A stretch of DNA of 64,000 nucleotides, taken from a virus. The DNA lies in IMG/VR virus record IMGVR_UViG_3300044568_004364. The stretch is one strand, 5' to 3'. The notes beneath the pieces were generated by a model. The model had not been told where the DNA came from, made no database searches, and was given only the letters and a program-made list of their open reading frames with translations. Position numbers and translations under genes: made by a program. Below are positions 2,123-5,875 of the stretch, piece by piece (position 1 is the stretch's first letter; every line of letters begins with the position of its first letter).

Positions 2123-2334
2123 TTGTCGGCTCAGCCTTCAGATTTGACAAACTGTGTTTTGAATTTTATGCTTTGAGTTTTGAATTTTGAAAACGGCAAT
2201 TTGAGTTTTGAATTTTTTGCCAAATATGTATAGGCAATTGCGGTGTCATTTTCAATATCGTATGCTACATAGCATGTAGTTCAGAATTAGTATCACGAGG
2301 ATACATGCGTCATTTCATCCGTCCGAGCCGACAA
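2123..2334 (-). ncRNA. Candidate structured ncRNA (12-bp closing stem plus extension, internal hairpins, three AAAAUUCAAAAC(U/A)CA repeats)
   Basis: 2323-2334 and 2123-2134 are complementary (one G-U); further CGGAU/AUCUG and UGAC/GUCA pairing; repeats at 2153-2167, 2172-2188 and 2200-2216. Confidence 0.6.
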
Positions 2335-2340
2335 AAGTTT

Positions 2341-2796
2341 TTATTTTATAGTCGTCAACGCATTGTAGTTGTCAATAGTGTCTTGCAACTTTTCCGCGAG
2401 ACTGCGATAAGTCAAAATTAAATTGTCAACATTTTTTTGATCAAGCGCATATTCAATTGTATATTCACTATCGACAATACGGTTAAGAGCATAGTCATGC
2501 ACCTGAACAGGATAACCACTTACACCAGCCTGCAAGCTTTCAAGAAACTTAATTACGCCTTTAGTTTCGGCAAGATCTGCAAGTTCGGCTGAGATGCTAG
2601 CATTTGCAACAGCGAGTTGTTGTTTGATCCTTACAAGATTTGCCTTTTCTTCAAGCAAACGATTAAAGAGAATCCCAACATCATCCACAGGTGGACGATT
2701 ACTCTGATGCTTATTGCTCTTAACAATTTTCTTTTCAAGTTCGGCGATGCGACCTGCAATACGATTCTTTTCTTTAAGTCCTTGTGCGATGTTCAT
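2341..2796 (-). CDS. DIP1984-like helical protein
   Basis: MNIAQGLKEKNRIAGRIAEL...P..D...L...L...I....AN and C-terminal LQDTIDNYN.LTTI resemble the DIP1984-family pattern (recognised by eye). Confidence 0.65.
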   Translation of the reverse strand: MNIAQGLKEKNRIAGRIAELEKKIVKSNKHQSNRPPVDDVGILFNRLLEEKANLVRIKQQLAVANASISAELADLAETKGVIKFLESLQAGVSGYPVQVHDYALNRIVDSEYTIEYALDQKNVDNLILTYRSLAEKLQDTIDNYNALTTIK

Positions 2797-2802
2797 AATG
2801 GT

Positions 2803-2831
2803 ATTATATACTGTTTATTGTGTTTTGTAAA
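2803..2831 (-). promoter_or_regulatory. Sigma70-type promoter TTTACA-17-TATAAT, 6 nt before the ATG at 2796
   Basis: -35 at 2826-2831, -10 at 2803-2808. Confidence 0.8.
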
Positions 2832-2833
2832 TA

Positions 2834-3079
2834 TTATTTTTCGTAAATTTCAAATGGAACGTTATCTTTGAAAATCTTGTTAAGATAACTCATAAAGTCA
2901 TCTGACGTATCAGCATTATAGACATAGTCAAACAAGAAGTCTTCGGCGCGCGTTGATAGTTGAGCTTCGCTACAAAGTGAGCTCTTTAGTTCTTCATAAA
3001 GCTCATCTTGTTGTCGCGCAAGACCGTGAATAACTTGTCGCGTTTCTGTGATATGTCTGTTATTATTTTCGTTCATCAT
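2834..3079 (-). CDS. Hypothetical protein
   Basis: ORF track gives 2834-3160; the likely start is MMNENNN overlapping the RNA ligase stop. Confidence 0.5.
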   Translation of the reverse strand: MMNENNNRHITETRQVIHGLARQQDELYEELKSSLCSEAQLSTRAEDFLFDYVYNADTSDDFMSYLNKIFKDNVPFEIYEK

Positions 3080-4052
3080 ATTGTAGGTTGATAATTTTAA
3101 AACTGCCAGCTGCATGCTTAACAACAACACCTTCAAAAGTCTTGCCATCAATCTTATCAATCTCAGAGCTATATTTTTGAATGTGTGCCAAAGTTAACAC
3201 GACTGCTTTCTCAAGCATTGGAACAACAGGAATATTTAGTTGCTCACAAACCTTCTCGTAGTAATGAGCGTCAGCTGGATCAGCATACTCAAGTTTATCC
3301 ATATTAAAGACATTAAAGGCAGCGAAGTTAAGCGGAAGTTGACCGTGAGGATTTTTACCAAAGCCCTGAATACCATTGCCATAGAGCTCACCGCGCAAGC
3401 TTAGACTAACATCATGATGTTGACAATAAGCTAGCAGCTTGTTGACGATATCATACTTGGTGACTCCTTGAATATATTTGTTATCACATTCAGTTTTAAG
3501 ACGCAAGCTACGACTAGTGACACCAGTCTCCCAAGAGCCATCTTCAAGTTTGCGAGCATATACACTTAACGAGCTGCCATCAATCTTGAGAGTAATATCA
3601 CAAACTTCACCAAACGGCAAGTCAGAGATATTCTGCCAACGTTCTTCATCAGTCTTAGGCAAGCCACATGGCAAAAATCCAGCAGCGGATAAATCTTGTG
3701 GTGCAGGCGGCTCGTATTTAGACACGCCAATAATCTCAGAGACTTCAGTGCCCGACACAATATCGCCATAAGCAACAAGAGCAGGCCAAGTGCTAATAGG
3801 CATTACAATACCAAAGCTCCATACACCACGTAGCTTACATGCCTTTACACGATTGCTGCGTGCTCTAAAGACTGCAGCCCATGGCTCATCAGGCAATACT
3901 GTATCAGGTTGAATAAGAATCACACGATGCCCAACTGCAAATTTATCTTTTTGCACGATGCATTCATATCCTAAGACACGTACAATCTCAAGACTATCGG
4001 CATTATGGTGTGGCAGCACAGCTGTTACGGTTTCTACTGTTGCGAGTTTCAT
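3063..4052 (-). CDS. ATP-dependent RNA ligase, DRB0094-like family
   Basis: N-terminal P..NADSLE...V.GY.CIV.K OB-like domain; PKTDEER; motif I KIDGSS; GELYG; EGVVVK; SFKIIN..Y. Confidence 0.9.
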   Translation of the reverse strand: MKLATVETVTAVLPHHNADSLEIVRVLGYECIVQKDKFAVGHRVILIQPDTVLPDEPWAAVFRARSNRVKACKLRGVWSFGIVMPISTWPALVAYGDIVSGTEVSEIIGVSKYEPPAPQDLSAAGFLPCGLPKTDEERWQNISDLPFGEVCDITLKIDGSSLSVYARKLEDGSWETGVTSRSLRLKTECDNKYIQGVTKYDIVNKLLAYCQHHDVSLSLRGELYGNGIQGFGKNPHGQLPLNFAAFNVFNMDKLEYADPADAHYYEKVCEQLNIPVVPMLEKAVVLTLAHIQKYSSEIDKIDGKTFEGVVVKHAAGSFKIINLQYDERK

Positions 4053-4918: not shown

Positions 4919-5134
4919 TTAGAAGTTGGCAAAATTTAGTGTAGGATATTTAGCTTGGATACGCTGCTGCAGGATCTTCCTAAATTCATAGTATGCATCA
5001 AGAGCGGCTGCGTCATCCAAGTCGGATAAGAGTTCATGTGCTACATTATCAAAGTGAGACTCTAGTTGTGCAAGTTCATTAGCAGCAGCATCCAATTTTT
5101 TTTGTAGTTCTTTTTCTTGTAGTTGTTTGTTCAT
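4919..5134 (-). CDS. Small helical early protein
   Basis: 71 aa, own promoter at 5144-5172, N-terminus MNKQLQEK shared with the next ORF. Confidence 0.65.
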   Translation of the reverse strand: MNKQLQEKELQKKLDAAANELAQLESHFDNVAHELLSDLDDAAALDAYYEFRKILQQRIQAKYPTLNFANF

Positions 5135-5143
5135 AACGAGGAA

Positions 5144-5172
5144 AGTGTAGTGTTTTTTGGCGGCGGTGTCAA
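5144..5172 (-). promoter_or_regulatory. Sigma70-type promoter TTGACA-17-TACACT
   Basis: -35 at 5167-5172, -10 at 5144-5149, 9 nt from ATG 5134. Confidence 0.8.
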
Positions 5173-5185
5173 TGTTTTTCTTTGA

Positions 5186-5479
5186 TTATTTTTTAACAGC
5201 ATCACGAGCAGCAACCCAAGCAGCCCAAGCAGCATCAGCAGCAGCATTAGCAGCATCAGCAGCAGTGGCATAAGCAGCATTACGAGCAGCAGAATAAGCA
5301 GCATCACGAGCGTCAGCCCAAGCAGCATCATCAGCATCAGCAGCAGCATAAGCAGCATCAGCAGCAGCATAAGCAGCATTACGAGCGTCAGCAGCAGCAG
5401 CGCGAGCAGCATCATAAGCAGCATAAGCAGCATCACGAGCAGCAGTAGCATCCAATTTTTCTTGTAGTTGTTTGTTCAT
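5186..5479 (-). CDS. Alanine-rich low-complexity repeat protein
   Basis: AAYAAADAA/AARDAA/AAWAA repeats; own promoter at 5489-5517. Confidence 0.7.
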   Translation of the reverse strand: MNKQLQEKLDATAARDAAYAAYDAARAAAADARNAAYAAADAAYAAADADDAAWADARDAAYSAARNAAYATAADAANAAADAAWAAWVAARDAVKK

Positions 5480-5488
5480 AACGAGGAA

Positions 5489-5517
5489 AGTGTAGTGTTT
5501 TTTTGCGATTGCGTCAA
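5489..5517 (-). promoter_or_regulatory. Sigma70-type promoter TTGACG-17-TACACT
   Basis: -35 at 5512-5517, -10 at 5489-5494, 9 nt from ATG 5479. Confidence 0.75.
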
Positions 5518-5530
5518 TGTTTTTCTTTGA

Positions 5531-5875
5531 TTATTTTTTAACAGCATCACGAGCAGTATCAGCAGCAGCATAAGCAGCAGCATAAGCAGCATAAGCAGCC
5601 CAAGCAGCCCAAGCAGCATCAGCAGCATCACGAGCATCAGCATCACGAGCAGCAGCATAAGCAGCATCAGCAGCAGCAGCATAAGCAGCAGCAGCAGCAG
5701 CAGTAGCATAAGCAGCTGCACGAGCAACATGCGCATCAGCACGAGCAGCGTCATAAGCAGCGGCAGCAGCTGCATAAGCAGCAGCATGAGCAGCATGAGC
5801 AGCAGCACGAGCATAAGCAGCGTCGGCAGCAGCAGGATCATGAATCTTTTCTTCGGTTTGTGTGGTTGGTGTCAT
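5531..5875 (-). CDS. Alanine-rich low-complexity repeat protein
   Basis: Same repeat type; shares the C-terminus ARDAVKK with 5186-5479; downstream of promoter cassette 2. Confidence 0.7.
   Translation of the reverse strand: MTPTTQTEEKIHDPAAADAAYARAAAHAAHAAAYAAAAAAYDAARADAHVARAAAYATAAAAAAYAAAADAAYAAARDADARDAADAAWAAWAAYAAYAAAYAAADTARDAVKK

Follow-up and report, generated by a model that had tools for sequence, protein, structure and literature searches.

A DIP1984-like protein gene and its conserved downstream RNA: a putative ribonucleoprotein module of RNA repair in phages and bacteria

Introduction

In a T4-like phage genome, a small gene of the DIP1984 fold is followed by a structured non-coding RNA that is conserved behind homologous genes across phages and Lentisphaerae-type bacteria. 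The RNA is almost certainly real and linked to the gene, and we propose that gene and RNA make up one ribonucleoprotein (RNP) module of RNA damage control, an explanation that, taken whole, with binding of the protein along a repeated "rail" in the RNA and closure of the RNA into a circle included, we hold to be somewhat better than evenly probable. By analogy, the pair is best read as an undescribed RNP that may work as Ro60 and its Y RNAs do without being a member of that system. The RNA is undescribed in Rfam or in the papers searched, and may stand as an unnamed entry in lists of candidate RNAs (e.g., PMC10690425). Of the scaffolded RNP, RNA antitoxin and decoy against host defence that the original prediction had offered, the scaffolded RNP fits best; RNA repair, to which the genomic context points, had been touched there only through a nearby ligase.

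The locus and its genes

The window, that is, the whole stretch of viral DNA analysed here (64,000 nucleotides), is part of the genome of a T4-like phage, and its minus strand carries genes for the capsid, the terminase and replication. The module lies in a row of small early-type genes that runs from an RNA ligase through a small ORF, the DIP1984-like gene and a non-coding gap to RlpA-like, glutaredoxin and HNH genes; the features below are all on the minus strand. The predicted sigma-70-type promoter is present at 2803–2831, with an 11/12 match and a 17-nt spacer, and is the best match of its type in the region. Six nt separate the end of its –10 box from the start codon (ATG) of the DIP1984-like gene, so the mRNA is probably leaderless, and this arrangement is repeated before homologous phage genes. 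The gene itself (2341–2796), identified by ORF, profiles and structure model, encodes a 151-residue protein of the DIP1984/3KDQ fold. Upstream lies a small ORF with no assigned function (2834–3079), kept in nine near-clade loci, and beyond it, two genes upstream as had been noted, an ATP-dependent RNA ligase of the DRB0094/Rnl2 type (3063–4052; PF21189 and PF09414), which is syntenic in the near clade of phages and is a candidate ligase for the RNA.

The non-coding gap (2115–2340) had been described as among the longest of the genome and is by a crude ORF call the second longest in the window. On its far side an RlpA-like (DPBB) gene (1707–2114) starts 7 nt past the RNA. This gene adjoins the RNA in the near clade only, other genes occupy its position in loci L001 and L002, and it does not belong to the gene-plus-RNA module. 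Because the genes downstream of the RNA vary among loci, a role of the RNA as leader of rlpA was rejected.

Anatomy of the RNA

The ends of the RNA are taken from a head-to-tail junction in one metatranscriptome, run X1, which places it at 2121–2336 (216 genomic nt and one extra A). Within it, the 212-nt non-coding stretch of the original prediction (2334–2123) does begin six bases past the stop codon and does have complementary ends, and its folding is stable (z = –3.7, with 0/200 shuffles equally stable). The 5′ strand of the closing helix (2309–2334) consists of P1 (2334–2321), the triplet GGA (2320–2318) and P2 (2317–2309), and the 3′ strand (2121–2148) of P2 (2148–2140), GAA (2139–2137), P1 (2136–2123) and a final CC (2122–2121), read as CCA in X1. 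The inner 5-bp extension that had been proposed (~2321–2317 with 2143–2139) proved to be out of register, as homologues keep the GGA/GAA loop at 2320–2318 and 2139–2137. Inside the helix follow two small variable hairpins (2265–2304; 2304–2290 and 2279–2265), whose sequence is changed in close relatives with the hairpins kept, and a purine strand that repeats every 6 nt (2242–2259), in which position 1 is G in 56/57 units and position 4 is A in 56/57. Between this strand and the rail stands hairpin P5 (2217–2237), found with a different sequence in 18/19 near-clade RNAs and absent from distant clades; the small hairpins that had been predicted are those at 2279–2265 and 2237–2217.

A linker of four A's leads into the rail (2157–2216), which lies opposite the purine strand and is a run of eight in-phase 7-nt units (2212–2157) with the consensus NUYAAAN, the third of which is atypical. 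The three repeats reported earlier are real (2200–2216, 2172–2188 and 2151–2167), but they are parts of this eight-unit rail rather than separate 14–17-nt copies. Exact occurrences of the 12-mer of the repeats in the window are confined to these three copies, and the best 7-nt rail of the whole 64-kb window is that of this RNA. Positions 2195–2188 of the rail are able to pair with 2254–2247 of the purine strand.

The recommended Rfam scan yielded no match for the RNA. In the window no family, RAGATH-27 included, reached its gathering threshold, the best being RsaH (23 bits against 50, inside the ORF), and in 22 homologous loci only unrelated tRNAs or weak off-target matches appeared. ARAGORN found nothing in the window RNA, which is without T-arm, anticodon arm or tag frame.

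Conservation of the RNA and its linkage to the gene

We compared about 135 homologous loci, which reduce to a non-redundant set of 80. Members of the near clade all share one plan: a closing helix is followed by one or two variable hairpins, the purine strand, P5, a stretch of four A's and the eight 7-nt units, and then by its own return strand. The covarying closing stem expected in homologues was found: in hand-anchored alignments of 13 members, 124/129 cells of the outer stem are paired (96%, uncorrected for kinship) with 2–5 pair types per column, against 26–49% in slid controls. RNAalifold returned no structure from a plain MAFFT alignment, because the variable arms are misaligned there. 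The GGA/GAA internal loop interrupts the helix in 13 members. In loci L005, L009, L011, L052, L058 and L135 its place is taken by an AGUA/GAA loop of the sarcin-ricin or loop E type; in L062 the sides of the loop are swapped, and L003 and L007 have an uninterrupted helix of ~26 bp.

The spacing of rail cores across 76 loci peaks at 7, 14, 21 and 28 nt, with 149 at 7 against ~10. Rail and purine strand keep their sequence with little compensatory change, the pattern to be expected of strands that a protein reads or that non-canonical pairs keep in place; the rail bases, conserved as they are without compensatory partners, thus look like those of a protein-read strand. When the purine strand was laid against the rail as a Watson–Crick ladder, only hexad 2 with units 3/4 stood above permuted partners (10–17/19 per pair; z 3.7, which ignores phylogeny); the other pairings failed, and the full ladder was rejected. 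A pseudoknot of unit 3 with the region before the purine strand had no support in the near clade.

As the original prediction proposed, the RNA is conserved and travels with the gene. Its core, recognized by a profile or by a rail rule, lies behind at least 51/80 non-redundant genes as against 0.4% of control windows; a stricter motif rule (34/80, controls near 0) missed the window itself and was replaced by the looser rail rule. The sole off-target profile match is a second, tandem copy of gene plus RNA. RNA patterns used by themselves to search viral contigs found 12 matches, each with the gene directly upstream (12/12), and a pattern of the stem ends only gave three chance matches without gene or rail. 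A recognizable rail RNA is absent behind the gene in L012, L064 and L108; L064 has a terminator directly behind the gene, and L012 and L108 have tRNA-like sequence there. Many loci have a separate terminator behind the RNA.

Some loci depart from this plan in other ways. An extra structured stretch of 100–190 nt lies between gene and rail RNA in L009 (2952–3148), L011 (3450–3551), L057 and L040 (3429–3557); L009 and L011 have a hairpin of it in common, and it is possibly a second small RNA. In L124, from Victivallales, tandem gene-plus-RNA copies stand ~2 kb apart (1–330 and 1698–2500), with a third gene elsewhere in the genome.

Fold, family and oligomeric state of the protein

The protein, announced as a 151-aa helical one, is indeed encoded by an ORF of that length (2796–2341), but it also has a beta-hairpin and so is not all-helical: its model (pLDDT 90.7) runs helix, long helix, beta-hairpin, helix. 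The predicted likeness to DIP1984 holds over the full length of the fold. Corynebacterium diphtheriae DIP1984 (3KDQ) is the top match in both Foldseek and VIA-align (Z 13.8, 141/151 residues aligned, rmsd 2.6 Å), and the next-best structures match over short helical hairpins at Z ≤9.7. The 3KDQ structure was solved in 2009, and its family is often mislabelled septicolysin. Sequence matches are weaker: identity to 3KDQ is 15–16%, and the scores against PF20935 (18.9 bits, cut-off 27) and NF038048 (21.9, cut-off 70) lie below the curated thresholds. A profile built from the relatives matches 3KDQ at E 0.023, and 51/144 relatives match PF20935 at E<0.01. The protein is thus a member of the DIP1984/DUF6847 superfamily outside the curated subfamily, in a diverged, mostly phage branch that comprises 1,023 clusters at E ≤ 1e-10, in the Atlas mostly viral.

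The oligomeric protein of the original prediction finds agreement in a model of four copies, which scores 0.64 against 0.09 for the best of three controls, with contact agreement between runs of ≥91% and pLDDT ≥86. The mark applied to this score was reached by 20/30 solved pairs and 1/23 single chains, a calibration set unlike four copies, and the score may reflect memory of 3KDQ. The protein is accordingly best described as a predicted, antiparallel homo-oligomer. Near-invariant residues are K8, K10, N11, N28, K58, E77, K79, Q138, D139, D142, N145 and T148, and the net charge is zero (20 basic, 20 acidic). The modelled interface lies mid-chain, and the conserved residues of both chain ends, which are absent from the interface listing, are candidates for RNA contact. 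Direct binding of the RNA by the protein is a prediction that we consider quite probable.

Pfam and fold comparison identified no nuclease or TROVE domain in the protein, and PADLOC has no family for it; the literature searched gives neither a function nor an RNA partner for DIP1984/DUF6847. In a PHROG scan of 144 relatives no family was matched by more than three, and a kinship to T5.085/PHROG_1491 was unsupported. Deinococcus radiodurans, a model organism of RNA repair, has a PF20935 match above the cut-off; this match is absent from the DRB0094 region of MP1.

The RNA in metatranscriptomes

Four metatranscriptomes were compared, and three of them, two riverine from 2018 (perhaps one campaign) and one marine from 2025, yield contigs that match the window without differences and are confined to the RNA (2121–2336, 2124–2323 and 2125–2324); in the fourth, X7, only part of the gene is covered. 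Such contigs do not show level, strand or true ends; they give a hint that the RNA exists as a discrete species, as had been foreseen.

Circularization had been called conceivable, and one contig gives a single, possibly artefactual, observation of it. The 247-nt contig of X1 joins 2121 to 2336 through one additional letter, and its length (216 + 1 + 30) is exactly that of a closed cycle of 31-letter words. The cycle is clean and unbranched, its depth is 17 and its shorter arm at the joint measures 122 nt; the junction occurs neither in the window nor in viral DNA contigs. The other two positive runs do not extend the case: X2 (depth 21.9) and X3 stop 11–13 nt inside the 5′ end and have no joint. 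With the joint seen in one run, the chances of ligation into a 217-nt circle are about even.

On the RNA strand the extra letter of X1 is an A where the genome has C, so that the 3′ end would have read CCA before the join. The window genome encodes CC only, the A being seen in one run. CC follows the stem in 14/24 near-clade RNAs as against 16% of control windows, and in one separate phage clade a terminal stem rich in G-C, with NCCA after it, is encoded just before the terminator; a CCA-type end of the RNA is therefore likely. In X2, record 6 has six unmatched letters beyond 2124 and may show another 3′ end.

Association with RNA repair genes

The setting of the module in bacteria resembles that of a known RNP. 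In Victivallis vadensis and another Lentisphaerae genome, a divergent rtcR and a sigma-54 box are followed by the gene, the RNA and then rtcA and rtcB, or rtcB. Of 401 genomes sampled evenly from that phylum, 13 have the gene (14 loci), with rtcR, rtcA or rtcB within 1.5 kb at 10/14 loci and a sigma-54 box before the gene at five; the association recurs in four distinct parts of the protein tree and with two RtcB lineages. In Salmonella the same operon slot is filled by rsr and Y RNAs (PMC7790460).

In phages, the neighbours of the module include an Rnl2-type ligase (14/80 loci, two clades), Rnl1, RlaP, Thg1 and DUF7788/DUF2828 genes, which is largely the repair kit described for jumbo phages (PMC7824862). 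Much of this signal reflects common ancestry, which makes it weaker than that from bacteria: the ligase beside the module in 11 near-clade phages does not represent 11 events. Many loci lie more than 3 kb from any repair gene, and a gene neighbourhood does not by itself give a mechanism. In L138 (225–4782), the module lies among three ligase genes (Rnl2-type, Rnl1 and ATP-dependent DNA-ligase-like), all within 3.2 kb. Beside the module in L058 (831–2486), L005, L009, L011 and L073 lies a DUF2828/DUF7788 gene whose product has a helical N-part and a vWA-like C-part; it may be Ro60-like, and its model (pLDDT 43) has no PDB match.

Comparison with known systems

The closest parallel is Ro60 (Rsr) with its Y RNA. 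Both systems combine one protein gene with a neighbouring ncRNA that a terminal stem closes (PMC4201824; PMC7790460), both occupy the head slot of a sigma-54, RtcR-controlled rtcA/rtcB operon (here in the bacterial homologues, not in the phage copy), and both occur also in phages; in the Ro60–Y RNA literature, CCA addition to Mycobacterium smegmatis YrlA has been reported (PMC4201824; PMC7790460). The partners are nonetheless different, the one here being a 150-aa coiled coil with no TROVE match instead of a TROVE-vWA ring, and the RNA carrying a strand of 6-nt period and a 7-nt rail and possibly being circular. The T-loop motif of the tRNA-like domain of Y RNA is absent from the window RNA (ARAGORN and Rfam negative), and the Ro-binding motif of YrlA occurs in 1/26 near-clade RNAs, the window RNA not among them.

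With the DIP1984/DUF6847 family (PF20935, NF038048, 3KDQ; often labelled "septicolysin") the protein shares its fold over the full length, but it falls below both curated cut-offs. Jumbo-phage RNA repair (Rnl1/Rnl2/RtcB, RlaP, a CCA-adding enzyme, Thg1 and TROVE) matches the recurring phage neighbours of the module, and the account of it mentions neither this protein nor this RNA (PMC7824862). tmRNA and other tRNA mimics share with one clade of the RNA a terminal stem and NCCA, but the RNA has no T-arm and no tag frame and is negative in ARAGORN.

Proposed mechanism and alternative explanations

We propose that a T4-like phage may carry the module as a counter-defence against RNA-cutting immunity of its host. 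Gene and RNA would be co-transcribed from the leaderless promoter, as promoter and gene order suggest. The RNA would then be excised at the base of the closing stem and persist as a discrete species, at which the contigs hint. A nucleotidyltransferase would complete the 3′ end to CCA, the extra A being of a kind that RlaP or a CCA-adding enzyme could supply; addition of a nucleotide by RlaP before ligation has been predicted (PMC7824862). At least part of the RNA would have its 3′ end joined to its 5′ end in the 217-nt circle whose junction appears in one run, plausibly by the neighbouring ATP-dependent RNA ligase. The protein, as modelled, would form its antiparallel homo-oligomer and may lie along the 7-nt rail with about one unit per subunit, using Lys, Arg, Asn, Gln and Asp residues at both chain ends. 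Judging from the genomic context, the particle could then serve as a scaffold or adaptor in the handling of broken tRNA or rRNA, for repair or for disposal, beside ligases, as is thought for Ro60–Y RNA.

On one alternative, the RNA may be linear with a CCA end, the junction being an artefact of reverse transcriptase jumping or library ligation, and the rest of the module would then stand; we see the chances of this as evenly poised. The joint occurs in X1 only, X2 and X3 stopping inside the 5′ end without it, the closing stem juxtaposes both ends of the RNA, and template switching by reverse transcriptase is established (e.g., 10.1101/2021.05.13.443781). The flush G-C stem and NCCA of one clade also resemble a linear, tRNA-type end. 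The clean, unbranched cycle of X1, with its depth of 17 and 122 nt on the shorter side, argues against an artefact, as do the RNA ligases of three kinds that adjoin the module. CCA-type ends together with a phage early-type promoter would suit yet another role, that of a tRNA-end mimic that would lure anticodon nucleases or tRNA-sensing defence of the host as a decoy, the protein doing no more than protect it. For YrlA a function as decoy has been put forward (PMC7790460), but the window RNA has neither T-arm nor anticodon arm, ARAGORN and Rfam are negative, and joining the ends would conceal the CCA; we regard the decoy as improbable.

That the RNA always follows the gene immediately, shares its strand and has no promoter of its own is what one would see if it were a cis-acting structure of the 3′ UTR, stabilizing the mRNA or serving autoregulation by the protein, with no free RNA. 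RNA-only contigs without the gene in three studies hint otherwise, NCCA ends of tRNA type and, past the RNA, a distinct terminator in many loci speak against it, and eight phased units with a conserved non-canonical loop exceed the needs of a stabilizing hairpin, so that we think a cis element decidedly improbable. ToxIN and AbiF are systems in which a small gene has a repeat-bearing RNA as its neighbour, and the module shares this arrangement with type III toxin–antitoxin (ToxI) and AbiF systems. Gene and RNA travel together, with repeated, protein-sized units beside a small gene, as in a type III-like toxin–antitoxin or abortive-infection pair of toxic protein and neutralizing repeat RNA. 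The coiled coil is, however, 3KDQ-like, with no nuclease match and no PADLOC family; specifically, Pfam, PADLOC and fold comparison find no ToxN, CptN, TenpN or AbiF/HEPN nuclease. The units are 7 nt long within one closed RNA, unlike the tandem pseudoknot repeats of ToxI, which are cut to monomers. Genes without the RNA exist (L012, L064 and L108), and a place at the front of repair operons under RtcR control is more in keeping with a repair helper than with a toxin. The antitoxin reading of the original prediction thus finds little support by fold or profile, and we consider it highly improbable.

If the RNP of RNA damage control that we favour is real, the orphan DIP1984/DUF6847 fold gains an RNA partner and a pathway, and a second, unrelated protein–RNA module is added to the RNA repair operons of bacteria, for which the question of substrates and helpers is still under study (PMC7790460). 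A genuine circle would mean that a DNA phage encodes in its genome a circular, CCA-tailed ncRNA and has a candidate ligase at a distance of two genes, and a biological substrate of DRB0094-type ligases would become directly testable. The fullest version of the idea, a new RNP class common to large phages and bacterial RNA repair operons, in which a coiled-coil oligomer sits on a 7-nt rail, the CCA-tailed RNA is ligated into a circle in vivo and the whole is a non-homologous replacement of Ro60–Y RNA, is possible but rather unlikely.

Other features of the window

The promoter of the module belongs to a family of seven near-identical sigma-70-type promoters that the window carries on its minus strand (495, 2831, 5929, 10928, 15673, 21016 and 22990). 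Elsewhere on this strand, region 4919–5875 holds small ORFs with Ala-rich low-complexity repeats (5479–5186 and 5875–5531) and shared starts, together with open, overlapping frames rich in Leu and Met; these ORFs resemble recent duplicates.
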